This document shows positions 19,925 through 34,226 of a stretch of DNA of 64,000 nucleotides, in pieces. How positions within the stretch are numbered: position 1 is the stretch's first letter; each line of letters starts with the position of its first letter. A program made the translations under genes and the position numbers. Source of the stretch: Alphaproteobacteria bacterium. GTDB taxonomy: Bacteria > Pseudomonadota > Alphaproteobacteria > Bin95. The stretch lies in contig CBDBGH010000003.1 of the NCBI GenBank assembly GCA_965205265.1, positions 2,304,001-2,368,000 on the forward strand, written 5' to 3'. The notes under the pieces were generated by a model, which saw only the letters and a list, made by a program, of their open reading frames with translations, had not been told where the DNA came from and made no database searches.

Positions 19925-20227
19925 ATGGACCTTGATGTCGAACGCCTCCTCGGCGCCGTGGAGCGCACGGTGTCGTCCCTGGACCGCGACGGACAGGCCG
20001 CGCGCGCGGTCACCCTCGCCCGTGGCTACGCGACGACAGTGGAGGATCTCTGGGACGCCGTGACGAACACGGAACGAATCCGACGCTGGTTCCTGCCGGT
20101 CAGCGGCCGCCTCGAACCCGGCGGCCGCTTCCAGCTGGAGGGAAACGCAGGCGGCACGATCATGCACTGCAAGCCTCCCGCATATCTCGGCCTGACGTGG
20201 GAGCTCGGCGGTGACGTGGTGAGCTGG
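19925..20227 (+). pseudogene. SRPBCC/AHSA1-domain gene truncated by IS66
   Basis: VEDLWDAVT...RRWFLPVSG...GGRFQLEGNAGG; cut at GTAAGC (20228). Confidence 0.8.
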
Positions 20228-20322
20228 GTAAGCCTACGTCGTAGACCGCCTGTCGGTTTTGTCGTGTATTGGCGAGTTTTGGCGCTCAGGGATGGGCGCG
20301 CGTGGGTGTCCATCAGGGATAA

Positions 20323-20742
20323 GTGGACACTATGCGTATGTCGGACGCGGATCATTCGGGGGCGGGGGGCGAGGTTCGGTTTCGCCGCCGTCGCCGTCGC
20401 TGGAGCGAGGCGCGCAAGCGGCAGATCGTGACGGAGAGCTACCAGCCGGGGATTTCGGTTTCGGTGGTGGCGCGGCGTCATGACGTGAACGCGAACCTGG
20501 TCTTCAGCTGGCGCCGCCAGTATCGGGAACTGGCGAGAGTGGTGGGCGGCTTCGTCCCGGTGGTCGTCTCTTCGATGGAGGGGGCGGACCCGGCGAAGCT
20601 GCTGCCGGCGCCGCCGGCTATCGAGGCGTCTTCCTCCGGGCGTATGGAGATTGCCCTGGCGGACGGCTCGCGTGTGACGGTCGACCGGGATGTGGACGCG
20701 GCGGCTCTGTCGCGGGTTCTCGGGGTTCTGGAGCGGCGATGA
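20323..20742 (+). CDS. tnpA: IS66 accessory TnpA
   Basis: RRRWS...[21 protein letters not shown]. Confidence 0.9.
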   Translation: MDTMRMSDADHSGAGGEVRFRRRRRRWSEARKRQIVTESYQPGISVSVVARRHDVNANLVFSWRRQYRELARVVGGFVPVVVSSMEGADPAKLLPAPPAIEASSSGRMEIALADGSRVTVDRDVDAAALSRVLGVLERR

Positions 20743-21086
20743 TCCCGGTTCCGAGCGGAGCGCGGGTGTGGCTGGCGACCGGCGTGACGGACATGCGGCG
20801 CGGGATGAACACGCTGGCGCTGCAGGTCCAGCAGGGTCTCGGGCGGGACCCGCATGCGGGCGATCTCTTCATATTCCGCGGACGCAAGGGCGACCTCGTG
20901 AAGATTCTCTGGACCGACGGGATCGGCACGTCGCTCTACGCCAAGCGCCTGGAGCGCGGCCGGTTCCCCTGGCCTTCGGCTTCGGGCGAGGCGGTGTCGA
21001 TCAGCGCGGCGCAGCTCGGCTACCTGCTTGAGGGGATCGACTGGCGCAACCCGGTGCGGACCTGGCGTCCGTCGCGGGCCGGCTGA
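20739..21086 (+). CDS. tnpB: IS66 accessory TnpB
   Basis: [28 protein letters not shown]. Confidence 0.93.
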   Translation: MIPVPSGARVWLATGVTDMRRGMNTLALQVQQGLGRDPHAGDLFIFRGRKGDLVKILWTDGIGTSLYAKRLERGRFPWPSASGEAVSISAAQLGYLLEGIDWRNPVRTWRPSRAG

Positions 21087-22546
21087 CGGGCGGCAAATGG
21101 ACTCACCGGACAGGATCGGCATGGCGGCGCAGCGGTTGTTGTGATTCGCTTCCGGGCATGCCGGACGGATCGGACATCGACGCGCTGAAGGCCGCGCTGG
21201 CGGCGGCCGAGACCCGGGCTACGAACGCCGAGGCGCAGATCGCCGCCCTGAAGCTGATGATCGAGAAGCTGCGCCGCGCGCTTTTCGGCCAGCGTTCGGA
21301 GCGCAAGCAGCGGCTTCTCGACCAGATGGAACTCCAGCTCGACGAGCTCGAGGCGAGCGCGACCGAGGACGAGCTGGCGGCCGAACAGGCGGCGGCCGGC
21401 GCGACCCGGGTCAAGGGCTTCACCCGCCGCCGCCGGTTCGGGCGCAAGCCGTTCCCCGCGCATCTGCCGCGCGAGCGCGTGGTGGTGACGCCGCCGGACG
21501 CCTGCGCATGCTGCGGCTCGCAGAAGCTCTCCAGGATCGGCGAGGACGTCACCGAGACGCTGGAGGTCATTCCGCGCCAGTGGAAGGTGATCCAGACGGT
21601 GCGCGAGAAGTTCACATGCCGCGATTGCGAGAAGATCAGCCAGCCGCCGGCGCCGTTCCACCCGACGCCGCGCGGCTGGGCGGGCCCCAACCTGCTCGCG
21701 ACGATCGTCTTCGAGAAGTATGGGCAGCACCAGCCGCTGAACCGCCAGCGCGACCGCTTCGCGCGCGAAGGCGTCGACCTCAGCCTGTCGACCCTGGCCG
21801 ACCAGGTCGGCGCCTGCACGGTGGCGCTGAGGCCGCTGCACGACCTGATCGCATCGCATGTCATGGCGGCCGAACGCCTGCATGGCGACGACACGCCGGT
21901 GCCGGTGCTGGCCAGGGGCAAGACCGACAAGGGCCGGGCCTGGGTCTATGTCCGCGACGACCGGCCGTTCGGCGGTCCGGACCCGCCGGCGGCCCTGTTC
22001 CGCTACTCGCGGAACCGCTCCGGCGATCATCCGGTCGAGCACCTGGAGAGCTTCGCCGGCATCCTCCAGGCCGACAGTTTCGCCGGCTACAACCGCCTCT
22101 ACGCGGCCACGCGGCTGCCCGGGCCTGTCACCGAAGTTCCCTGTTGGGCGCATGGTCGACGCAAATTCTTCGAACTCGCCGACATTGCCGCCGGCAAGGG
22201 GCGCAGGAACGCGCCGCCGATCTCGCCGCTGGCGATGGAAGCCGTGAAGCGGATCGACCTGCTGTTCGACATCGAGCGCGACATCAACGGCAAGACCGTC
22301 GCGCGGCGCCATGCCGTCCGCCAGGAGCTGAGCGCGCCGCTCGTCGCCGAACTCGAGACCTGGATGAAGGCCGAACGCGCCAGGCTCTCCCGTCATGCCC
22401 CCGTCGCCAAGGCCATGGACTACATGCTCAGACGATGGGACCGCTTCGCCCGCTTCCTCGACGACGGGCGCATCTGCCTCTCGAACAATGCCGCTGAAAG
22501 GGCGCTCAGGGGTATTGCGACGATGGAGTCATTCTGCACCCCCTCT

Positions 22547-24625
22547 TCAACTATCTGAAAACATTGACATCTGATCCCGGCATGAAGTGCGACGCGGGCC
22601 TTTCCTTTGTGCCAGGGCGTGAGCAACGCTCTCTGAATGGAGGTCCGCGGCTCTGATCTGCCAAGGCGCTCGGGGAACGAGCTGCGTGGCGGGTAGCGTT
22701 CCATCCTCGATGAGGCGCCTGAGCGTATGGCTGGTGGTGCCCAACTCGTTCGCCGCCTCGGTCATGGTGTACCAATCGCCCTGCTTGTCCGCTGAGAGAT
22801 AGCCGTCGATCCCGTTCACGCGACGGATCGATCCGACCCGCTTGCCGGTCCAGCTCTTGTGCTGGCCGGTCCGCATGCCCATCCGGTTGAGAGACGCAGC
22901 GATATGTTCGTCCGACCACCGCCCGGCCATGCTGCGTATCACCGCCAGCGCTTCCTCGGGCGTTCGGCAGCCATGTTCACCGGTTCTGGGCTTTCGAACC
23001 CGCAATCGGGAATGGCGGCCACCGACCCAGTGGATCGTCAGCAGGACTTCGCGCGCTTCCTCGTCGACATCGGCGACGATGCCGGCGATCAGGGTGCGTA
23101 CGAGCCGCTGGCGGGCACGCATGCTCACCCCCGGCGCGTTCCAGGCTGCCTTCAGGTCATCGGCAAGCCCGGCCAGATCCGGTCCCGAGGGCTGCGGTGA
23201 CGGCGACCGCATTGCCTCCAGCCGCGCTTCGCACACCTGGACGCGGCGAAGCGCCGCCTCCCAACTCTTCTCCAGCTCGGCGGCAATCAACCGGTTGTCC
23301 GGATCGCAGGCGGCATAGCGCCGCTCGGCGAGTGATGCTTCGTAGCGGGCTTGCTGCAGGTCCAGCTCGGCCACTCGCTGTTGTTCGCTCAGGCCCTCCA
23401 CCTTCACCCGCTCGGCCTTCAAGGAGGCTTCCACGGCCAAGGGCTCGACGACCCCGATGATCTCATCGGCAATGGCGGCATCCACACGCGCGCCGCCGAA
23501 CCTCAGACAGCGATCGAGCCCGAGCTGGAGGTGTTGCCGGTTGCAGAAATAAACAGGATTGCCCGGTGATTGCCCAGCATAGGCGACTGACATTGAGCGG
23601 CCGCAGCGCCCACAGCTGAGAAGTCCGCTCAGCAGCGCCCGTCCGCCGCGCCCGGACTTCGCGCCGCCGGACCAGCCGAAGGCGTTGGCGGCGAGTTGCG
23701 CCTGGTTGCGCTCGAACTCCGCCCAATCGATGTAGCCCTCGTGATGGTCCTTCAGCATGACCTCCCATTCCGCCATCGGTCTCCGGTGGCCATAGCTTTT
23801 GTGCACCCGCCCGTCGACGATCTCGGTTCGTTGTTCGCTTTTGCCGTAGGCATAGACACCAGCGTAGAAGGGGTTCTTCAATACCGAAATCACATTGCGA
23901 TAGCGGATCGGCGTCCAGTCGAAGCTAACCGTTGTCCTGCCATCTGACGGGCGCGGGAAGCAATGCTGCTGCTCGACCAGCGTCAACAGGACCTGCCGCG
24001 CGCTGCCCAGCTCGCGAAATCGGGCGAATATCTGACGGATCGCTTCCTGAACCCGAATGTCAGGATCCAGCCCCAGCCCGCCTTGGGGATGCCACACGTA
24101 ACCGATCGGGACGCTGATGCGAAGCTCGCCGCGCGCTGCCTTGGATCGGGCGGCGTCGAGCATCCGTGCGCGGAGAACGCCGAGTTCGAACTCACTGATC
24201 TGGCCCTTAAGTCCGAGCAGCAAGCGGTCGTTTGGGTGGCGAGGATCATAGATGCCATCCAGGTCGATGACGCGGGCCTCCACGAGACCGCAGAGCTCGA
24301 GCAGATGGTGCCAGTCCCGGCCGTTGCGGGAGATGCGAGACGCCTCGAAGCAAAGTACCGCTCCGACGTCCCCGGCACACAGCCAGGCGACGAGACGCTC
24401 GAAACCCGGCCGTGCGATGGCGCCACTCGCCGACAGGCCCAGATCTTCGTCGATGACCTCAACCCGGGCGAAACCGTGCCCGCGCGCCACGTTGACGAGA
24501 TCGTATTGGCGGCGCTGGCTCTCGAGATTGTTCCGCATCTGCTGGGGCGTGGACTGACGGACATAAACCACGGCCTTGCGCGTCAACACCGATCGCGGCA
24601 ACGCATCAGAGGTGCTCATCGTCAT
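22547..24625 (-). CDS. Large serine recombinase (resolvase + recombinase + Zn ribbon + C-terminal HTH)
   Basis: YVRQST, SRISRN, LKNPFYAG, LLSCGRCG, coiled coil. Confidence 0.95.
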   Translation of the reverse strand: MTMSTSDALPRSVLTRKAVVYVRQSTPQQMRNNLESQRRQYDLVNVARGHGFARVEVIDEDLGLSASGAIARPGFERLVAWLCAGDVGAVLCFEASRISRNGRDWHHLLELCGLVEARVIDLDGIYDPRHPNDRLLLGLKGQISEFELGVLRARMLDAARSKAARGELRISVPIGYVWHPQGGLGLDPDIRVQEAIRQIFARFRELGSARQVLLTLVEQQHCFPRPSDGRTTVSFDWTPIRYRNVISVLKNPFYAGVYAYGKSEQRTEIVDGRVHKSYGHRRPMAEWEVMLKDHHEGYIDWAEFERNQAQLAANAFGWSGGAKSGRGGRALLSGLLSCGRCGRSMSVAYAGQSPGNPVYFCNRQHLQLGLDRCLRFGGARVDAAIADEIIGVVEPLAVEASLKAERVKVEGLSEQQRVAELDLQQARYEASLAERRYAACDPDNRLIAAELEKSWEAALRRVQVCEARLEAMRSPSPQPSGPDLAGLADDLKAAWNAPGVSMRARQRLVRTLIAGIVADVDEEAREVLLTIHWVGGRHSRLRVRKPRTGEHGCRTPEEALAVIRSMAGRWSDEHIAASLNRMGMRTGQHKSWTGKRVGSIRRVNGIDGYLSADKQGDWYTMTEAANELGTTSHTLRRLIEDGTLPATQLVPRAPWQIRAADLHSESVAHALAQRKGPRRTSCRDQMSMFSDS

Positions 24626-24791
24626 CCTCCTTCACCGCGAAATCCGCCGCTTCCAGAAGCAGCCCGGCCAGCGCGCCCACGACCGCGTCGCGTTCCTCCC
24701 GGTTCAGGCCACGCAGCGCCGGTGTGTCCAACAGCATGCTGAGCTGTCGGAACTCGCCCGGCGGCCTCGCCGGTACAGCCAAAGACTTCAT
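24606..24791 (-). CDS. Small accessory protein upstream of recombinase
   Basis: Mirror of 25826-26011. Confidence 0.6.
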   Translation of the reverse strand: MKSLAVPARPPGEFRQLSMLLDTPALRGLNREERDAVVGALAGLLLEAADFAVKEDDDEHL

Positions 24792-25418
24792 TGAGCTCCT
24801 CCTCACTAACCGTCCCGTCAGCGGAGGAGCTTCGTCTAAAACCCTGGCCGACGAGAACCTCGTGAAGCGCGGCAAGAGCGGCCAGGGATACACGCGGCGC
24901 GCCGATCTCCATGCCGGCGCATGACGCAGGATCGAGCGACCAGGCGGGAATCTTGATGACCAGCCCGGGCTCTACCTCGACAGAGGCCATGAGGCCGTCG
25001 GCACGCTGTTCGATAACTTCAAGGCGGACACGGCGGCCGAAATGGGCATGCCACGGGTAATGGATGACGCAGTCCTGCCCGACATGGGCAGAATGAATGC
25101 ACGATCGCCCTCGGCCGCAAATCCTGGCTGTTCGCCGGCTCCGACCGCGGCGGCAGGCGCGCCGCGGCCATGTATACCCTCATCGGAACCGCCAAGCTCA
25201 ACAACGTCGATCCCCAGGCCTGGCTCGCCGATGTCCTGCGCCGGATCGCGGAGACGCCGCAGAGCCGGCTCGGCGAACTCCTTCCATGGAACCGGCAGGA
25301 CAGCCAGCGGCACGATAACGCCGCATAGCCAGACAAGCCCGCCCGATCCGTCCCGATCAACAGCACCCCGCAGACAAACTCAAACCGACATACCCTGCGG
25401 TCCTTGTCGGACGCTTAC

Positions 25419-25510
25419 AGTTTGGCGGTGCCGATGAGGGTATACATGGCCGCGGCGCGCCTGCCGCCGCGGTCGGAGCCGGCGAACAGCCAGGATTTGC
25501 GGCCGAGGGC
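25419..25510 (-). pseudogene. IS66 tnpC 3' fragment (ALGRKSWLF...TAKL)
   Basis: Near-identical to 25107-25198 (2 mismatches); cut by the right end of IS66 A. Confidence 0.8.
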
Positions 25511-25995
25511 GATCGTGCATTCATTCTGCCCATGTCGGGCAGGACTGCGTCATCCATTACCCGTGGCATGCCCATTTCGGCCGCCGTGTCCGCCTTGAAG
25601 TTATCGAACAGCGTGCCGACGGCCTCATGGCCTCTGTCGAGGTAGAGCCCGGGCTGGTCATCAAGATTCCCGCCTGGTCGCTCGATCCTGCGTCATGCGC
25701 CGGCATGGAGATCGGCGCGCCGCGTGTATCCCTGGCCGCTCTTGCCGCGCTTCACGAGGTTCTCGTCGGCCAGGGTTTTAGACGAAGCTCCTCCGCTGAC
25801 GGGACGGTTAGTGAGGAGGAGCTCAATGAAGTCTTTGGCTGTACCGGCGAGGCCGCCGGGCGAGTTCCGACAGCTCAGCATGCTGTTGGACACACCGGCG
25901 CTGCGTGGCCTGAACCGGGAGGAACGCGACGCGGTCGTGGGCGCGCTGGCCGGGCTGCTTCTGGAAGCGGCGGATTTCGCGGTGAAGGAGGATGA
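25511..25995 (+). CDS. Accessory ORF1; its upstream start would be supplied by the circle junction
   Basis: Frame open from the element end (SCIHSAHVGQDCVIHYPWHAHFG...IPAWSLD); internal ATG at 25627. Confidence 0.6.
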
Positions 25996-26011
25996 CGATG
26001 AGCACCTCTGA
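25826..26011 (+). CDS. Small accessory protein (61 aa)
   Basis: GAGGAG RBS; MKSLAVP...RQLSMLLD...LAGLLLEAA; overlaps recombinase start. Confidence 0.65.
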   Translation: MKSLAVPARPPGEFRQLSMLLDTPALRGLNREERDAVVGALAGLLLEAADFAVKEDDDEHL

Positions 26012-28070
26012 TGCGTTGCCGCGATCGGTGTTGACGCGCAAGGCCGTGGTTTATGTCCGTCAGTCCACGCCCCAGCAGATGCGGAACAATCTCGAGAGCC
26101 AGCGCCGCCAATACGATCTCGTCAACGTGGCGCGCGGGCACGGTTTCGCCCGGGTTGAGGTCATCGACGAAGATCTGGGCCTGTCGGCGAGTGGCGCCAT
26201 CGCACGGCCGGGTTTCGAGCGTCTCGTCGCCTGGCTGTGTGCCGGGGACGTCGGAGCGGTACTTTGCTTCGAGGCGTCTCGCATCTCCCGCAACGGCCGG
26301 GACTGGCACCATCTGCTCGAGCTCTGCGGTCTCGTGGAGGCCCGCGTCATCGACCTGGATGGCATCTATGATCCTCGCCACCCAAACGACCGCTTGCTGC
26401 TCGGACTTAAGGGCCAGATCAGTGAGTTCGAACTCGGCGTTCTCCGCGCACGGATGCTCGACGCCGCCCGATCCAAGGCAGCGCGCGGCGAGCTTCGCAT
26501 CAGCGTCCCGATCGGTTACGTGTGGCATCCCCAAGGCGGGCTGGGGCTGGATCCTGACATTCGGGTTCAGGAAGCGATCCGTCAGATATTCGCCCGATTT
26601 CGCGAGCTGGGCAGCGCGCGGCAGGTCCTGTTGACGCTGGTCGAGCAGCAGCATTGCTTCCCGCGCCCGTCAGATGGCAGGACAACGGTTAGCTTCGACT
26701 GGACGCCGATCCGCTATCGCAATGTGATTTCGGTATTGAAGAACCCCTTCTACGCTGGTGTCTATGCCTACGGCAAAAGCGAACAACGAACCGAGATCGT
26801 CGACGGGCGGGTGCACAAAAGCTATGGCCACCGGAGACCGATGGCGGAATGGGAGGTCATGCTGAAGGACCATCACGAGGGCTACATCGATTGGGCGGAG
26901 TTCGAGCGCAACCAGGCGCAACTCGCCGCCAACGCCTTCGGCTGGTCCGGCGGCGCGAAGTCCGGGCGCGGCGGACGGGCGCTGCTGAGCGGACTTCTCA
27001 GCTGTGGGCGCTGCGGCCGCTCAATGTCAGTCGCCTATGCTGGGCAATCACCGGGCAATCCTGTTTATTTCTGCAACCGGCAACACCTCCAGCTCGGGCT
27101 CGATCGCTGTCTGAGGTTCGGCGGCGCGCGTGTGGATGCCGCCATTGCCGATGAGATCATCGGGGTCGTCGAGCCCTTGGCCGTGGAAGCCTCCTTGAAG
27201 GCCGAGCGGGTGAAGGTGGAGGGCCTGAGCGAACAACAGCGAGTGGCCGAGCTGGACCTGCAGCAAGCCCGCTACGAAGCATCACTCGCCGAGCGGCGCT
27301 ATGCCGCCTGCGATCCGGACAACCGGTTGATTGCCGCCGAGCTGGAGAAGAGTTGGGAGGCGGCGCTTCGCCGCGTCCAGGTGTGCGAAGCGCGGCTGGA
27401 GGCAATGCGGTCGCCGTCACCGCAGCCCTCGGGACCGGATCTGGCCGGGCTTGCCGATGACCTGAAGGCAGCCTGGAACGCGCCGGGGGTGAGCATGCGT
27501 GCCCGCCAGCGGCTCGTACGCACCCTGATCGCCGGCATCGTCGCCGATGTCGACGAGGAAGCGCGCGAAGTCCTGCTGACGATCCACTGGGTCGGTGGCC
27601 GCCATTCCCGATTGCGGGTTCGAAAGCCCAGAACCGGTGAACATGGCTGCCGAACGCCCGAGGAAGCGCTGGCGGTGATACGCAGCATGGCCGGGCGGTG
27701 GTCGGACGAACATATCGCTGCGTCTCTCAACCGGATGGGCATGCGGACCGGCCAGCACAAGAGCTGGACCGGCAAGCGGGTCGGATCGATCCGTCGCGTG
27801 AACGGGATCGACGGCTATCTCTCAGCGGACAAGCAGGGCGATTGGTACACCATGACCGAGGCGGCGAACGAGTTGGGCACCACCAGCCATACGCTCAGGC
27901 GCCTCATCGAGGATGGAACGCTACCCGCCACGCAGCTCGTTCCCCGAGCGCCTTGGCAGATCAGAGCCGCGGACCTCCATTCAGAGAGCGTTGCTCACGC
28001 CCTGGCACAAAGGAAAGGCCCGCGTCGCACTTCATGCCGGGATCAGATGTCAATGTTTTCAGATAGTTGA
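25992..28070 (+). CDS. Large serine recombinase
   Basis: Same 692-aa translation as copy 1. Confidence 0.95.
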   Translation: MTMSTSDALPRSVLTRKAVVYVRQSTPQQMRNNLESQRRQYDLVNVARGHGFARVEVIDEDLGLSASGAIARPGFERLVAWLCAGDVGAVLCFEASRISRNGRDWHHLLELCGLVEARVIDLDGIYDPRHPNDRLLLGLKGQISEFELGVLRARMLDAARSKAARGELRISVPIGYVWHPQGGLGLDPDIRVQEAIRQIFARFRELGSARQVLLTLVEQQHCFPRPSDGRTTVSFDWTPIRYRNVISVLKNPFYAGVYAYGKSEQRTEIVDGRVHKSYGHRRPMAEWEVMLKDHHEGYIDWAEFERNQAQLAANAFGWSGGAKSGRGGRALLSGLLSCGRCGRSMSVAYAGQSPGNPVYFCNRQHLQLGLDRCLRFGGARVDAAIADEIIGVVEPLAVEASLKAERVKVEGLSEQQRVAELDLQQARYEASLAERRYAACDPDNRLIAAELEKSWEAALRRVQVCEARLEAMRSPSPQPSGPDLAGLADDLKAAWNAPGVSMRARQRLVRTLIAGIVADVDEEAREVLLTIHWVGGRHSRLRVRKPRTGEHGCRTPEEALAVIRSMAGRWSDEHIAASLNRMGMRTGQHKSWTGKRVGSIRRVNGIDGYLSADKQGDWYTMTEAANELGTTSHTLRRLIEDGTLPATQLVPRAPWQIRAADLHSESVAHALAQRKGPRRTSCRDQMSMFSDS

Positions 28071-28100
28071 AGAGGGGGTGCAGAATGACTCCATCGTCGC

Positions 28101-29414
28101 GATCGGCCTCATTGCGCGTTCGGCGGGGTTGTTGTCGATCTCGAGGAAGCCGTGCTCGAGATAGGGTCGAAGGCGCTTCATCCGGGTCAGGGCATGACGG
28201 ATCGCCGCTGCCAGCGGGGTCTTGGCGGAGATTCTGGGCAGCTGCGATTGCAGCCACCGCTCCAGCTCGTCGAGGCACGGCGCGGCCTTGGCCTGGCGGA
28301 TGGCCGCGCGGTTCTCGGGCGGCTGCCCGCGGGCCTCCTTCTCGATAGCGTAGAGGGCGGCGATCCGTTCCAGCGCCTCGGCGGCGATCGCCGAGCCCTG
28401 GGCGGCATGGACGTCGAAGAACTTGCGTCGCACATGCGCCAGACAGGCCACCTCGCGGACCGGCCCGGCGCGCGCCAGCGCACCGAACCCGGCATAGCCG
28501 TCCGAGTGCATCCAGCCGGCGAAGCCTTCAAGATGCGCCTTCGGATGCGCCGCCTTGCGGTCGGCCGAGAAGCGGTACCAGGCCGCCGGCGGCGCCTCGC
28601 CAGCCCAGGGCCGCTCGTCCCGCACGTAGGTCCAGGCCCGGCCGGTCGCCGTTTTGCCGGTTCCCGGCGCCAGCAGCTTGACCGGGGTGTCGTCGGCGAA
28701 CAGGGCTTGTCCTTCCAGCACATGGCGCCCGATCGCATCGGCCAGGGGCTCCAGCAGCGCCGTCGCCTTGCCGACCCAGCCGGCGAGCGTCGAGCGGTCG
28801 AGCTCGACGCCGTCGCGGGCGAAGATGCGGGACTGGCGGTAGAGCGGCAGGTGATCGCAATACTTCGAGACCAGCACATGCGCCAGAAGGCCGGGGCCCG
28901 GTCGGCCGCGCTCGATCGGTCGCGGCGGCAGCGGCGCCTGGTGGAACTTCTCGCAGCCGCCGCAGGCCAGGCGCGGACGGACGATGCGCTTCACCACGAA
29001 GCGGCCGGGGATGTACTCCAGCTCCTCCGTCACATCCTCGCCGAGCCGCTTGAGACGGCCGCCGCAGTCCGCGCAGCGCTCGCCCGGCGCGAGAACCGTC
29101 TCCTCGCGCGGCAGGTGGTCCGGCAGGGGACGGCGCTTCGGCTGCTTCTTCGTGGCGGGCGTCGGCTCGGTCGGCGCCTCGGCCGCCCGCGCGATCTCCT
29201 CGTCCTCCAGCCCGAGCTCAAGCTGGTCGAGGGCCTCCGAGGTGACGCCGAAGCGCTGCCGCCGCAGACCCGCAAGCTGGTGCCTGAGCTTCTCGATCAA
29301 CAGATCGCGGTTGCGCAGCTCGGCGTCCCGTGCCGCCAGTTCGGCCCGCGAGGCCAGCACCATCGCCTTCAACGCGGCGATGTCGTCGGGCAGGGAATGG
29401 GCCGCTTCGAGCAT
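28101..29414 (-). pseudogene. tnpC: IS66 TnpC cut at RPIA| by recombinase element
   Basis: KYCDHLPLYRQ, ADDTPV, CLAHVRRKF, IDNNPAERAMRPIA. Confidence 0.9.
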
Positions 29415-29488
29415 GGCCGCATCCTACCCGAAGGGGCCGACAAAGGGAAGCCCGAATGACAGTCAACCCATTGTTTATAAACGGTGAA

Positions 29489-29836
29489 TCAGCCCGCGGC
29501 CAGCGGTCTCCAGGTGCGAACCGGCGCCCGCCAGTCGATCCCCTCAAGCAGCATCGACAGCTGCGCCGGCGTCACCGACACCTTCCCTTCCGATGCCGAC
29601 GGCCACACGAAGCGGCCGCGCTCCAGACGCTTCGAGAACAGGCACGCACCCTGGCCGTCCCACCAGATCATCTTGATCAGGTCGCCCCGGCGGCCGCGGT
29701 AGATGAAGAGATGGCCGCAATGCGGATCCGCCTTCAATACCCGCTCCGCCTGCGCCGCGAGACCGGGGAACCCCTTGCGCATGTCGGTCACGCCGCAGGC
29801 CAGCCATACCCGGGTCGAGGAGGGAACCGGGATCAT
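29489..29836 (-). CDS. tnpB: IS66 TnpB
   Basis: [22 protein letters not shown]...LLEGIDW. Confidence 0.92.
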
Positions 29837-30178
29837 CCGCCAAGCGCCCGCACCACCCGGCACAGCGCGTCCGCGTCGAACGACCCGAACGCGCTCACCC
29901 GGTGGCCGTTCGACAACGCGATCTCGATCCGACCGTCCGATGCCGCGGCCGGCTCCAACGGCGGCGCATCGGGCACCACCTCCACCGGCAGGAAGGACGG
30001 CGCCTCCCCGGCATCGGCCGCCGGCCTGTAACGGGGATCGCGCCGCCAGGTGAAGATCAGGTTGGCGTTGACGTCTGCGGCGCGCCACAACCGACACCGA
30101 GACACCGGGAGCGTAGCTCTGCGCCACGATCCGGCGCTTCTCGTCGTCCGACCAGAACCGGCGTACCCGACGTGGCAC
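29833..30178 (-). pseudogene. tnpA: IS66 TnpA, frameshifted
   Basis: RRFWSDDEK...VARR and [10 protein letters not shown] lie in different frames. Confidence 0.8.
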
Positions 30179-30417
30179 CGCAGCCCCCTAAGATAGTGTC
30201 CATTAGCCGATAATGGACACTATCGACCTCCGGAACCTCACCAGAGACTGCGGCTCCAAGCCGTCTCGCCACAAGGGCGGTCACGCCAGACGCTTACGAG
30301 AAACCGGCAAGGACAGCGATGCGAAATCGTAAGCGATGGAGTGGACGCCCCTCCCGACGGCATCGCAATGTGCCAGGTTGACGGTGTTGTAAACGCCAAG
30401 AGAGGAAAGGGGCGTCC

Positions 30418-31440
30418 ATGGAACAGGTTAGCATGATCGGGATCGATCTCGCGAAGAACAGCTTTCAGCTTCACGGTGCGCGACCCGAAGGATCGGTCGC
30501 GTTCCGGAAGAAGCTGAGCCGGGGTAAGGTGCTGGGGTTTCTGGCCTCGCAGCAGCCCTGCACAGTTGCGATGGAAGCCTGCGGCGGCGCGCATCATTGG
30601 GGTCGTGAGATTGGGCGTCTGGGCCATGCGGTGCGGTTGGTTCCGCCGGCCTACGTGAAGGCCTACGTCAAGCGACAGAAGAACGATGCGGCGGATGCGG
30701 AGGCGATCTGCGAGGCGGCATCGCGTCCGACGATGAGTTTTGTGGCGGTGAAGACGGTCGAGCAGCAGGCCCGTGGCATGCTGTTCCGCACGCGCGATCT
30801 GCTGGTGCGCCAGCGGACCCAGACGATCAACGCGCTTCGCGGCCACCTGGCGGAGTTCGGTGTCATTGCTCCCCAGGGCCCGGTTCATGTCGAGCGTCTG
30901 GCGTCGGCGCTTGAAGACCCGGACCTGGATCTGCCGGATGCGGTCCGCGAGCTGGCCGGCCTTCTGTTGAACCAGATTGGCGGGCTTGGCGAGAAGATCG
31001 ATGGCCTTGACGGGGAAATCCGGGCGGCGGCTCGGCAGGACGACGAGGTACGTCGTCTGATGACGGTGCCGGGGATCGGCCCGATCACTGCGATGGCGGT
31101 TCAGGCCTTCGCGCCGCCGATGGAGACCTTCCGGCGCGGACGGGACTTCGCCGCCTGGCTCGGCCTGGTGCCGCGCCAGCACACGACCGGCGGCAAGCCG
31201 CGGCTGGGCAAGATATCGAAGATGGGCCAACGCGATCTGAGACGGCTGCTGATTACAGGCGCCATGGCGGTCGTTCGCTGGGCGGCTCGGCGCGGCAGGA
31301 CGAACGATCCATGGCTTGCCAGGATGCTGGCGCGCAAGCCGCGTATGCTGGTCGCCGTGGCGCTGGCCAACCGGATGGCGCGCATCGTCTGGGCGCTGAT
31401 GATGAAGAAGGAGAGTTACCGGGCTCCCGCCGCCGCCTGA
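30418..31440 (+). CDS. IS110/IS1111 DEDD recombinase
   Basis: GIDLAK, MEACG, KNDAADAEAI, PGIGP, WLGLVP. Confidence 0.96.
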   Translation: MEQVSMIGIDLAKNSFQLHGARPEGSVAFRKKLSRGKVLGFLASQQPCTVAMEACGGAHHWGREIGRLGHAVRLVPPAYVKAYVKRQKNDAADAEAICEAASRPTMSFVAVKTVEQQARGMLFRTRDLLVRQRTQTINALRGHLAEFGVIAPQGPVHVERLASALEDPDLDLPDAVRELAGLLLNQIGGLGEKIDGLDGEIRAAARQDDEVRRLMTVPGIGPITAMAVQAFAPPMETFRRGRDFAAWLGLVPRQHTTGGKPRLGKISKMGQRDLRRLLITGAMAVVRWAARRGRTNDPWLARMLARKPRMLVAVALANRMARIVWALMMKKESYRAPAAA

Positions 31441-31775: not shown

Positions 31776-32180
31776 GTGAGTTTCACATTGTTGGGCTCAG
31801 TTGAGACACACAGGACGGTTGAAGTGCTTCCGGCGCGTGGCGGACGTCGTCGCTGGCCGGACGAAGTGAAGGCTCGGATTGTAGCGGAGACGCTGGAGCC
31901 TGGGGCGACGGTGCGCGCCGTTGCGCGGCGATACGATGTTCATTCGAACCAGCTGACGAGCTGGCGGCGTCTGGCGCGGGATGGGCGTCTTGTTTTGCCT
32001 GCGGCGGAAGCGGGCGTGGAGTTTGCGCCGCTTGTGGTGCGGGCTGAAGGGCGCGGCGGTGCCGAGGTGAGCGGCGCGCGTGTGGAAGTGGTCCTGGACC
32101 GGGTTACGGTCCGTCTGGACGCGGCGGTGCCGGCGGTCCGGCTGGCGGAGATCGTCTCTGCGCTGAACGCGTCGTCATGA
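31776..32180 (+). CDS. tnpA: IS66 TnpA
   Basis: RRRWPDEVKARIVAE...VARRY. Confidence 0.88.
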   Translation: MSFTLLGSVETHRTVEVLPARGGRRRWPDEVKARIVAETLEPGATVRAVARRYDVHSNQLTSWRRLARDGRLVLPAAEAGVEFAPLVVRAEGRGGAEVSGARVEVVLDRVTVRLDAAVPAVRLAEIVSALNASS

Positions 32181-32530
32181 TCTTCCCCTCGAACCGGGTG
32201 CGGATCATGGTCGCGACGAAGCCCGTCGACTTCAGGAAGCAGCACGACGGTCTTGTGGCCTATGTGAAGAGCGCGCTGCGCCGTGACCCGTTCACGGGCA
32301 CGGTGTTCGTGTTCCGGGCGAAGCGCAGCGACAGGCTGAAGCTGATCTACTGGGACGGGACCGGCCTGGTCATGGTCTACAAGCGCCTGGAGGAGCAAGG
32401 CTTTGTGTGGCCGGCGATCCGGGACGGGGCGATGACGTTGAACCATGCGCAGTTCGAGGCCTTGTTCGCGGGCCTGGACTGGCGTCGCGTGCGGGCGCTG
32501 TCGGTCAGGGCGCCGGCCGAGGCGGAATGA
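32177..32530 (+). CDS. tnpB: IS66 TnpB
   Basis: PVDFRK, YWDGTG, KRLE. Confidence 0.92.
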   Translation: MIFPSNRVRIMVATKPVDFRKQHDGLVAYVKSALRRDPFTGTVFVFRAKRSDRLKLIYWDGTGLVMVYKRLEEQGFVWPAIRDGAMTLNHAQFEALFAGLDWRRVRALSVRAPAEAE

Positions 32531-32585
32531 CTCACCGCACGGATCGCGGCCTGCGGCTCCGCGACACTGTGCTATCGGGTGAGCC

Positions 32586-34226
32586 ATGGCTGCGCTTGCG
32601 GAGATGGACCTCGACACGCTGACGCCCGAACAGGCGGCGGCCGCGAGGCAGGCGCTTGCGGCGCTGGAGACGCTGCGTGCCGAGAACGAGACGCTGGCGG
32701 AAGAGAAGGCCTGTCTGGCGGGTGAGAACGAGGCGCAGGCCGAACGCATCCGCCGTCTGGAACATCTGAACCTGGAACTGATCCGGCTTCTGTATGGCAA
32801 GAGGTCGGAGAAGCTGTCGGCGGACGAACGCCAGCTGGCGTTCGAGGAGCTTGAGGGCGCGTCTGCGGAGGTGGAGGCCGCGGCGCCGCCGGAAGACCCG
32901 TCGCCGGCGCGCTCGGCGAAGCGGCCTCGTCCGGCGCGCAATCTCGGCCATTTGCCGGAACACCTGCCCCGGATCGAGCAGGTGATCGAGCCGGAGAGCA
33001 CGCTCTGCCCCTGCGGCTGCGGGGAGATGGTGCGGATCGGGGAAGATCGCGCCGAGAGGCTCGACATCGTGCCGGCGCAGTTGCGGGTGATCGTCACCGT
33101 GCGCCCGAAATACGCCTGCCGGACCTGCGAGGGAGGCGTCACCCAGGCGCCGGCGCCGGCCCGGCTGATCGAGGGCGCGCTGCCGACTGAAGGCGCCATC
33201 GCCCATGTTCTGATCTCGAAATACGCTGACCACACCCCGCTCTATCGTCAGAGCCGGATCTACGCCCGCTCGGGGCTGGAGCTGGACCGCTCGATCCTAG
33301 CCGGCTGGGTCGGCAAGGCGGCGTTCCACCTCGGGCCCGTGTATGACCGCCTGAAGGCGGCGCTGAAGACGTCGAACAATCTGGGTCTGGACGAGACCAC
33401 GGTTCGGGTTCTCGACCCGGGCCGGGGCAAGACGAAGACCGGCTATCTGTGGACGATGGCGCGCGACGAGCGGGCCTGGTCCGGGGCGGACCCGCCGGGC
33501 GTGGCGTATGAGTATGCGCCCGGGCGTAGCGGCAAGCATGGCGAGAGGCTTCTCGAGGGCTTCAGGGGAACGGTGCAGATCGACGGCTACTCCGGCCACA
33601 ACCGACTGGCTCGGCCGAACCGGGCGGGCGGGGCGCTGACGCGGGCTGCCTGTTGGGTCCATGCCAGGCGGGGCCCCAAGGAGGTGTTCGACAGTAGCGG
33701 CTCGCCGATCGCGAAAGAGGCTCTGAGGCGGATCGCGCAACTCTACGCGATCGAGGACAGGATCCGGGGTGAGCCGCCGGCGACGCGCCAGTTTGTCCGC
33801 TGGACCGAGGCCGCGCCGCTGGTGAACGCCTTCGGGGTGTGGCTCGACGAGCAACGCTCGCGCGTCTCGCCCAAGTCCCGGCTCGGTGAGAAGCTGTCCT
33901 ATATCGCCAACCACTGGGAGAGGTTGCTGGTGTTCCTCTATGACGGCGCGTCGAGATGGACAGCAACTTCGTCGAAAACCGCATCCGGCCGCAGAAGCTC
34001 ACCGCGAAAAACGCCCTGTTCGCCGGCCACGATGAGGGCGCGCGCTCATGGGGCCGCGTCGGTAGCCTGATCGAGACCTGCAAGATGAACGGCGTTGAGC
34101 CCTACGCCTGGCTCAAGGACACGCTGGAGAAAATCGCCGGAGCCTGCCCCTGCGAAGGCGGGGGGCCACCCCAACAGCCGCATCGACGACCTACTTCCCT
34201 GGAACTTCATCCCGCCGTCAAGCTGA
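32586..34226 (+). pseudogene. tnpC: IS66 TnpC with frameshift (~33945) and ~25-bp palindromic insertion
   Basis: MDSNFVENRIRP lies in a different frame from the body of the gene. Confidence 0.85.

Follow-up and report, generated by a model that had tools for sequence, protein, structure and literature searches.

The 64,000-nt stretch analysed here, called the window below and used as the frame of all coordinates, belongs to an alphaproteobacterial genome of three contigs and 5.7 Mb (contig CBDBGH010000003.1; contamination estimate 7.28%) and carries two identical copies of a small mobile element. In both copies, a gene for a large serine integrase (int) is accompanied by two short genes, orfA and orfB, and the element lies within tnpC, the transposase gene of insertion sequences of the IS66 family. 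We read it, with a probability of about 0.85, as an autonomous minimal integrative element, taken to be active, whose integrase would recombine the site formed by the joined ends of the element with one alanine codon of tnpC (..IA|LGRK..), splitting the transposase gene. At the level of sequence, the reading is based on exact ends, a repeated 2-bp core, five identical copies in the genome, the same codon used across hundreds of diverged relatives and a common orfA-orfB-int layout.

The window holds a single large inverted repeat, 22457-25198 against 25419-28160 (2742 nt, 99%). Comparing its two arms base by base, there is no mismatch across 22517-25186, with 25 mismatches within 22462-22516, on the side of the N-terminal part of tnpC, and two (25187 and 25196) on the side of its C-terminal part; from this pattern, the sequence common to both copies begins exactly at a GC dinucleotide on the N-terminal side. 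The unit comprises 2588 bp plus a GC at each junction, which a preliminary description of this DNA had written as 2590 bp. Copy A is located at 22519-25106, with its integrase on the minus strand and antisense to tnpC, and is 100% identical to the four other copies of the genome. Copy B, also of 2588 bp, is located at 25511-28098 on the plus strand, and its GC cores are read at 25509-25510 (left junction) and 28099-28100 (right junction); its right end (28072-28098, plus strand) contains a ribosome-binding site (RBS) and the first five codons of orfA, and it also forms the right attachment-site arm. Five copies without a difference over 2588 nt exclude chance as an explanation.

The preliminary description had announced two GC-bounded copies in 22517-28100, and they were found there with zero differences, the span being delimited by the outer GC of each copy; they are inverted, and not in direct arrangement. 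Both are placed at ..IA|LGRK.., as it had claimed, reading ..NNAAERALRGI(A) in copy A and ..NNPAERAMRPI(A) in copy B, with LGRKSWLF.. on the other side. The 19-nt terminal arms that it quoted are present and match each other at 14 of 19 positions by manual count. It had further located the insertion in the conserved region of the IS66 transposase, in agreement with the position of the cut: both N-terminal parts of tnpC reach position 268 of 284 of the Pfam profile DDE_Tnp_IS66, so the gene is interrupted inside this domain. Its statement that the 5' flanks come from two different IS66 transposases holds, these N-terminal parts being 43% identical. The C-terminal flanks are not independent, as copy B is bordered there by a 90-nt stub of the type found beside copy A. 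The element is cargo-free in the sense that resistance, mobilisation and conjugation genes are absent, but not in the strict sense, as two conserved small open reading frames (ORFs) exist besides the integrase; as seen by the ORF list and the conserved frames, orfA, orfB and int are the whole content of the 2588 bp.

The integrase gene is located at 22547-24625 on the minus strand in copy A (ORF list and Pfam) and at 25992-28070 on the plus strand in copy B (Pfam), encoding 692 amino acids (aa). It is a large serine recombinase, as it had been called at the outset, according to every sequence criterion that was applied, and has the Pfam domains Resolvase (PF00239, E 8.1e-22, residues 18-167), Recombinase (PF07508, 193-313) and Zn_ribbon_recom (PF13408, 331-388), together with HTH_17. 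The latter corresponds to an extra C-terminal helix-turn-helix of the excisionase type at residues 618-663 (TIGR01764, 29.1 bits against a cut-off of 28.8). The residues R23-Q24-S25 are invariant in 22 family members, and S25 is taken, by its position, as the putative nucleophile serine. A coiled-coil hairpin is predicted by AlphaFold2, formed by helices 379-439 and 445-473, with a predicted local distance difference test (pLDDT) of 72-93 in this block. Regarding solved structures, the nearest chain is the SPbeta integrase, with an E value of 2.2e-6 covering residues 66-346 only.

All five element copies of the genome are 100% identical over 2588 nt. Four of them are inserted in IS66 tnpC genes at the same codon, with the integrase always antisense to tnpC, three being in A-type genes (94-100% aa identity among themselves) and one in a B-type gene. 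The fifth copy (G000:C3:3807738-3810325, locus L002) splits darT at a look-alike site. The identity of darT is given by Pfam DarT for both halves, with the break at profile position 77/83 of 201, and by a neighbour matching Macro; as the element splits the gene, the DarT toxin of this toxin-antitoxin pair, a single-stranded DNA ADP-ribosyltransferase, is disabled. The macro-domain partner (darG-like) downstream of the split gene is intact. On one side of the darT site, the half-site reads CTCGGCCAGAAA, resembling the CCTCGGCCGCAAA of the tnpC site but one base nearer the core. Because identical elements occur in diverged hosts and in a gene that is not IS66, and because the identity ends at the 2-bp core, the copies point to site-specific integration, and not to IS66 transposition or gene conversion.

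Of the 24 tnpC sites of the genome that align to the target codon, 20 are empty, all of these being of the ..RP(I/V).LT.KNALF.. type (..LTRKNALF) without CTCGGCC; an A-like relic (C3, at about 2788680) with CCTTGGAAGA at that place is likewise empty. A loose half-site motif occurs ten times in the genome, and five of these are occupied. It seems that target recognition in this genome rests mainly on the LGRK-coding half-site (CTCGGCC..AAA), the other half-site being loosely specified. In Logan contigs of four sequencing runs (X15, X16, X18 and X19) compared with 22300-25330, the element appears as its own unitig (22517-25109), branching exactly at its ends; these contigs contain neither joined ends nor a restored tnpC, but as they drop rare variants, this absence says nothing about excision. 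Run X15 also has two further contigs, each of 2592 nt, whose only similarity to the element lies in the terminal 30 nt (22517-22546 and 25080-25109); the sample may contain a second family member, diverged but with the same ends.

The search for the integrase family gave 7986 proteins at E <=0.001 among 8000 scored. Membership was inspected and shown for the best 120 of them, which are all 689-710 aa long and 70-93% identical, many lying on contigs of ~2.6 kb; relatives at the same tnpC codon have integrases that are 62-89% identical. The flanks of homologues were tabulated, as had been proposed with the preliminary description, and instead of unrelated sites the same tnpC target codon was found in both loci from another genome, in ten of ten plasmid loci and in 68 of 74 assessable metagenome contigs. 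The two loci of the other genome (L006 and L007), 86% identical to the window element at the nucleotide level, occupy the same place in a B-type and an A-type tnpC (2/2). Plasmids gave 280 matching records at E <=1e-100, mostly from rhizobia (Rhizobium 86, Sinorhizobium 83, Bradyrhizobium 31) and also from Betaproteobacteria; carriers include plasmid pRL12 of Rhizobium johnstonii 3841 and Sinorhizobium meliloti. When ten matches were taken from different genera of Alpha- and Betaproteobacteria, the C-terminal part of tnpC began at, or within one residue of, A-L-G-R-K in all ten, and the N-terminal part stopped within three residues of the target codon, again in all ten. The tnpC hosts of the relatives are as little as 31% identical to tnpC-A, with very different DNA on the N-terminal side.

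The metagenome sample comprises the best 80 of at least 573 confirmed matches. The left junction was placed by a 12-nt left-end motif, exact in most loci, and the right one by the RBS followed by ATGA, up to 400 nt of each flank then being compared with a panel of tnpC pieces. Six of the 80 contigs have no flank of at least 32 nt and were not assessable; in 68 of the remaining 74, at least one IS66 tnpC flank abuts the junction. Both flanks could be assessed in 47 contigs: canonical IS66 on both sides, with int antisense, in 31; a fully reversed arrangement in one (L074); IS66 on one side only in ten; odd pairs in two (L087 and L099); and no IS66 on either side, with matched cores, in three (L038, L043 and L103). 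The mixed cases are of uncertain meaning, since short-read assemblies can misjoin across a 2.6-kb repeat. Joined ends were present in none of the 15 contigs examined among the 80 loci, and contigs of 2590 nt (L045) and 2613 nt (L051) simply stop at the element ends.

Two more distant relatives were found within genes of other insertion sequences. Of 400 other genomes sampled from the class, seven contain a relative at E <=1e-100, six of them 41-47% identical and one a fragment that is 76% identical, and tBLASTn of tnpC pieces on loci with 40-47% identical integrases detected no adjoining IS66. One such relative (L014, G228:C1) splits istB of IS21 at its Walker-A codons, with the core GT and Pfam IstB_IS21 matched by both halves. 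Another (L016, G191:C2) splits an IS110-family transposase at ..YVKPF|VKTNKNDAADA.., with the core AC; Pfam DEDD_Tnp_IS110 is matched by its C-terminal half, and the N-terminal half has no match though it reads like the family. A second copy from the same genome is L021. The integrases of L014 and L016 are 42-45% identical to that of the window and their elements have the same end architecture; the clade appears to have specialised in conserved motifs belonging to several families of insertion sequences.

Comparing 45 loci, both arms contain TCATT.TGC at positions 11-19 from the core, and the left arm is conserved through ..CTGCCCAT. The core is the same at both junctions in 39 of 45 loci, being GC in 35, AC in three and GA in one, and differs between the two junctions in six; it is GC in all five copies of this genome, and GT/GT and AT/AT were read at two non-IS66 sites. 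At the A-type and darT sites, the identity between the recombining partners is limited to this GC. Moreover, the LGRK-side half-site matches the left arm of the element at 11 of 22 positions in the same register (manual count). Within one subfamily (L080, L074, L081, L085, L094, L071 and L073), three to four bases on either side of the core vary between copies (left end CAT, GAT or AAT), and the remaining arm sequence is constant.

In phiC31 and Bxb1, a non-symmetric core dinucleotide sets the polarity of integration. Two loci sharing a tnpC type whose target core is TC in the gene sense behave as expected from this rule: L080 has the core GA and the usual orientation, and L074 has TC and is reversed. 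GC cannot set polarity, as it reads the same on both strands. The integrase is nevertheless antisense to tnpC in the four tnpC copies of this genome (4/4), in both loci of the other genome (2/2), in nine of ten plasmid loci and in 31 of 32 metagenome contigs with IS66 on both sides and consistent orientation; the exceptions with a GC core are L026 (the reversed plasmid locus, from Azospirillum), L098 and L105. This bias might come from selection acting on inserted copies, or from an asymmetric accessory site recognised by either the C-terminal helix-turn-helix or OrfA.

The region from the left end to the integrase start was translated in 13 loci, giving two conserved frames. The first, orfA, begins at the extreme left end (..HSAHVGQ.V.VHYRWHP..G.., with the conserved segment ..HSAHVGQ..HY.WH..) without a start codon there, and in the integrated copy B its first start is an internal ATG at 25627. 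The body of orfA is located at 25513-25995 on the plus strand in copy B, its stop TGA overlapping the integrase ATG, and at 24622-25104 on the minus strand in copy A, where it is mirrored from copy B through the exact inverted repeat (ORF 24622..24990 listed). At the right end, a purine-rich RBS (28072-28078) lies two bases past the integrase stop, followed by an ATG (28085-28087), four further codons and the core. From this start, the reading frame passes over the core and into the orfA body without a shift in the window element, in all ten plasmid loci and in both loci of the other genome. As the RBS and the first five codons stand at the right end, orfA is whole only when the ends are joined.

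To survey orfA more widely, 41 of the 80 metagenome loci were picked by hand, keeping those whose contig includes the left end and passing over obvious duplicates. In 41/41, no stop interrupts the frame for at least 110 codons, and it runs for 154-173 codons to a stop overlapping the integrase start region, again in 41/41, the context being ATGA, GTGA or TTGA in 39 and the exceptions L052 (CTGA) and L087 (ATAA). Gene callers rarely find orfA, and database matches to it number 12 only. Four of these start at a codon within the flank, and another, P0131 (166 aa, from a contig of 2712 nt), has the N-terminus M-T-Q-P-R-P-S-P-V-H-S-A-H, as expected across joined ends. Neither OrfA nor OrfB matches anything in Pfam or NCBIfam at E up to 1. 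The AlphaFold2 model of OrfA, of moderate confidence, shows a small beta-barrel and a helix, with a pLDDT of 74.7 from a 34-row alignment.

The second frame, orfB, is located at 25826-26011 on the plus strand in copy B, encoding 61 aa, and at 24606-24791 on the minus strand in copy A, mirrored from copy B (ORF 24606..24893 listed). It lies, in a different frame, within the poorly conserved 3' part of orfA, is represented by 30 cluster representatives of similar length and bears the motif ..RQLS..FD...LRG.s..ER......LA.LLLEAAG...E.DD. A crude script displayed it in 32 of the 41 loci, printing another frame or nothing for the other nine. When a complex of OrfB with the integrase was predicted, the complex passed its controls, with a score of 0.67 compared with 0.00 for the best of three controls; the mark used for such predictions is reached by 58 of 80 solved complexes and by two of 110 mismatched pairs, rough counts obtained with custom alignments. 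The runs agree in at least 75% of contacts, with a partner pLDDT of at least 57. The predicted contacts involve integrase residues 391-408, 482-512 and 533-539, which flank the helices 379-439 and 445-473 of the AlphaFold2 model and form both feet of the hairpin. According to PMC11722253, known directionality factors bind at the base of the integrase coiled-coil. The predicted site fits this place and supports OrfB as a likely candidate for the recombination directionality factor.

In the proposed life cycle, the integrated copy would excise as a circle, where the RBS and five codons of the right end would join the orfA body, allowing full-length orfA to be translated. The integrase would be produced by translational coupling, given that the orfA stop overlaps the integrase start, and acting alone it would integrate the circle into a free IS66 tnpC site, whereas OrfB, predicted on the feet of the coiled-coil, would permit excision. 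We infer the order of these events, the promoter and the role of OrfA, which is a guess. An extended version, which we hold only tentatively, makes the split orfA a self-contained topological switch of direction. Because the attachment site is inside orfA, its full length could be translated in the circle only; there, ribosomes on orfA would override the embedded orfB start and end on the start codon of the integrase, which, made without OrfB, would integrate. In the integrated copy, orfA would be startless and orfB free for translation, so that any integrase present would be set for excision. The same tentative version sees in the clade a radiation of "IS hunters", each lineage being tuned, including its core dinucleotide, to IS66 tnpC, IS21 istB or an IS110-family transposase.

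Several observations weigh against the reading of an active element that integrates at the tnpC codon. No circle, empty-site joint or recombination product was observed, a point that is untested rather than negative. Five of the ten loose half-site motifs of the genome are empty, IS66 flanks are lacking in 6 of the 74 assessable metagenome contigs, and they are found on one side only in 10 of 47; given these one-sided and missing flanks, either specificity is not absolute or short-read assemblies join wrong flanks. By the textbook rule, a palindromic GC core should allow both orientations, yet the antisense bias exists and the model leaves it unexplained. A scan for sigma-70-like promoters in 25380-28250 gave zero sites in or beside the element. 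The integrase model as a whole has low confidence (mean pLDDT 61.7), and a Foldseek search of OrfA against PDB gave no significant match, the best (E 0.27) being small barrels of Tudor, KOW or SH3 type.

An alternative is a serine "transposon" of the Tn4451/Tn5397 kind with relaxed specificity, inserting wherever DNA resembles its own joined ends, with tnpC over-represented due to its abundance and its motif and not through specialisation on IS66. One of the five copies of this genome is in darT, where the half-site motif is one base out of register, three metagenome contigs with matched cores have no IS66 on either side, and the LGRK-side half-site is like the left arm of the element. However, 68 of 74 contigs and all 12 genome and plasmid loci use one tnpC codon, despite tnpC identities down to 31%, and integrases that are 42-45% identical sit at conserved motifs of other insertion-sequence genes, looking rather like specialisation; we consider relaxed specificity unlikely. 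The preliminary description had also suggested that the element may travel inside IS66. Going further, the copies might not be mobile by site-specific recombination at all, having spread by IS66 transposition, homologous recombination or gene conversion. The C-terminal tnpC flank common to the window copies for 90 nt, and more widely among A-type copies, would fit such a history, as would the occupied IS66 near C3:4361004-4366219 with its perfect 8-bp target duplication and the rearranged state of the window locus. It is nonetheless very improbable: the identity ends exactly at GC on the N-terminal side, the same 2588 bp occur in the 43% identical tnpC-B and in darT, where there is no IS66 homology, and the A-type hosts differ among themselves (94-100% aa) while their elements do not, which, also for the suggested travel inside IS66, points to separate integrations rather than co-transposition.

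It could also be asked whether the inverted pair is real, as a perfect inverted repeat of 2.7 kb with a 220-nt centre has the shape of long-read fold-back errors, and the contamination estimate of the genome is 7.28%. An assembly artefact, by fold-back or a collapsed repeat, would leave one real copy at the locus. The outer flanks of the two copies differ, though (tnpC-A and tnpC-B), and a very similar assembly (L009 and L010) also joins tnpC-B to the element. In addition, a contig of the independent run X16 (loose end at 25195) has the 90-nt stub joined to the IS66-A end just as the window does, arguing against an artefact, to which we give hardly any credence.

Compared with the serine integrases of phages and integrative and conjugative elements (phiC31, Bxb1, A118, SPbeta), the window integrase shares the resolvase, recombinase and zinc-ribbon domains, the coiled-coil, the 2-bp crossover core and a small partner whose predicted position at the foot of the coiled-coil is like that of known directionality factors. 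The differences are the weak sequence similarity to SPbeta mentioned above (E 2.2e-6, residues 66-346), the extra C-terminal excisionase-type helix-turn-helix, a total size of 2.6 kb without phage or conjugation genes, a target that is the transposase gene of another mobile element, a core that in this copy reads the same on both strands, and an attachment site within orfA, which is split on integration. In its proposed life cycle, the element most resembles the clostridial serine transposons Tn4451/Tn4453 (TnpX) and Tn5397 (TndX), which are moved by large serine recombinases. Here too, such a recombinase would be the sole mobility enzyme, with a presumed circular intermediate, and dependence of expression on the joined ends, predicted here, would be a further likeness. 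The targets of TnpX and TndX resemble the joined ends, as the LGRK-side half-site does here by the count given above. For Tn4451, a joint-formed promoter was reportedly described by Lyras and Rood in 2000 (cited in PMC13023037). Unlike these transposons, the window element has no resistance, mobilisation or conjugation cargo, its joint would restore a coding sequence (RBS, start and gene body) and not a promoter, and its target is one conserved codon of IS66 tnpC.

The prophage-like phiRv1 of Mycobacterium tuberculosis, of ~10 kb, has a serine integrase and a separate Xis and targets the REP13E12 repeats. It is likewise a serine-integrase element directed at a multicopy genomic repeat, although the REP13E12 target is no catalytic motif of a transposase that phyla have in common. 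Homing into other mobile elements occurs with the group II intron RmInt1, in ISRm2011-2, and the "res hunters" Tn5053/Tn402, which have the same life style of a parasite of parasites, with a target spread by another mobile element; they use retrohoming or DDE transposition guided by resolution sites, and no serine integrase. The IS607 family is also of insertion-sequence size and moved by a serine recombinase, but its small recombinase has an N-terminal helix-turn-helix and the domain order is opposite, the window enzyme having the catalytic domain first, followed by large C-terminal DNA-binding domains, within 692 aa. Membership in IS607 was rejected, as NCBIfam NF033518 gave 18.3 bits against a cut-off of 110. 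Target specificity in that family is minimal, according to PMC4058570.

No published description of a serine recombinase element in IS66 was found, in a search whose coverage left aside ISfinder and TnCentral entries and most subscription journals, and no such element appears in the accessible parts of PMC10061031, PMC3925955, PMC3281130 and PMC10083194. The supplements of PMC10083194 tabulate the Pfam families of target genes for thousands of such recombinases, and IS66 could be among these targets. The element is real and widespread, an apparently undescribed variant among serine-integrase elements. With it, the catalogue of bacterial mobile DNA would gain a type that it lacks, one that is as small as an insertion sequence, lives on other insertion sequences and depends on a large serine integrase for its movement. 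Such elements are very common, and annotation pipelines say of them only "recombinase family protein" beside an IS66 pseudogene. By disabling IS66 copies, the element may keep down the activity of IS66 in genomes and on symbiosis plasmids. Moreover, a gene split at the attachment site would be a simple mechanism for telling the circle from the integrated state. The relatives also offer hundreds of natural pairs of integrase and site, with the cores GC, AC, GA, GT and AT and a short partner for each, from which recombinase tools could be developed, although a GC core alone cannot fix orientation.

Regarding the host genes, IS66 elements have terminal repeats beginning with GTAAGCG and generate an 8-bp target duplication. 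In the window, the three IS66 genes were recognised by Pfam and terminal repeats were found. IS66-A spans 20228-25418 on the plus strand, with its left inverted repeat starting at 20228 and the right one ending at 25418 (Pfam HTH_Tnp_1, TnpB_IS66 and DDE_Tnp_IS66). It includes tnpA (20323-20742, plus), tnpB (20739-21086, plus) and the N-terminal part of tnpC-A (21158-22518, plus; LZ_Tnp_IS66, zf-IS66 and DDE_Tnp_IS66), which ends with ..NNAAERALRGI and the GC core at 22517-22518. Beyond copy A, the A-type C-terminal part of tnpC (25107-25328, plus; core GC at 25107-25108) is translated as ALGRKSWLF... to its stop and is identical to a genome copy near C3:3197257-3197475. The right terminal inverted repeat (25400-25418, minus) begins GTAAGCG reading inward, being the single match in the window with zero expected, and the same 20-mer terminates the genome copy at C3:3197166. 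The occupied A-type IS66 near C3:4361004-4366219 is bordered by a perfect 8-bp target duplication (CGCAAGCG), and none was found around the IS66 copies at C3:3197166-3202401 or in the window.

The 90-nt A-type C-terminal stub of tnpC (25419-25508, minus) flanks copy B, abuts the IS66-A end and has two mismatches to the copy-A flank; it reads as a rearrangement scar. On the other side of copy B, only the left part of IS66-B exists (28101-30297, minus; Pfam), its terminal repeat ending at 30297. It contains the N-terminal part of tnpC (28101-29414, minus; Pfam LZ_Tnp_IS66, zf-IS66 and DDE_Tnp_IS66) and a fused tnpA/tnpB ORF (29489-30178, minus; Pfam). The C-terminus of its tnpC and its right end are absent from the genome, as BLASTN with the B-type C-terminal flank from L006 gave no match. 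The 8-bp flanks of IS66-A differ from each other, so that it is not a simple insertion. Considering the stub next to the IS66-A end, the missing B-type C-terminus and the unmatched flanks, the locus was evidently rearranged after the insertions. Three histories were tried and do not fit: a simple insertion of IS66-A into IS66-B, an inversion between the two element copies, and an origin through cross-matched 8-bp flanks among the copies.

Insertion sequences are clustered in the neighbourhood. The left end of IS66-A cuts an ORF at 19925-20227 (last residues ..LTWELGGDVVSW), whose continuation was not found beside either IS66 end within the window. The ORF at 30418-31440 begins MEQVSMIGIDLAKNSFQLHG and is presumably of the IS110 family, and the three ORFs that follow one another at 31776-34070 are like IS66 tnpA, tnpB and tnpC in size only. 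In the near-identical assembly, where L009 and L010 lie on one contig, the N-terminal part of tnpC-B adjoins the left end of the element in reverse arrangement, and the element is broken by ~1.9 kb of other DNA after position 331, a layout that hints at additional rearrangement or nested insertion events in a sister strain.

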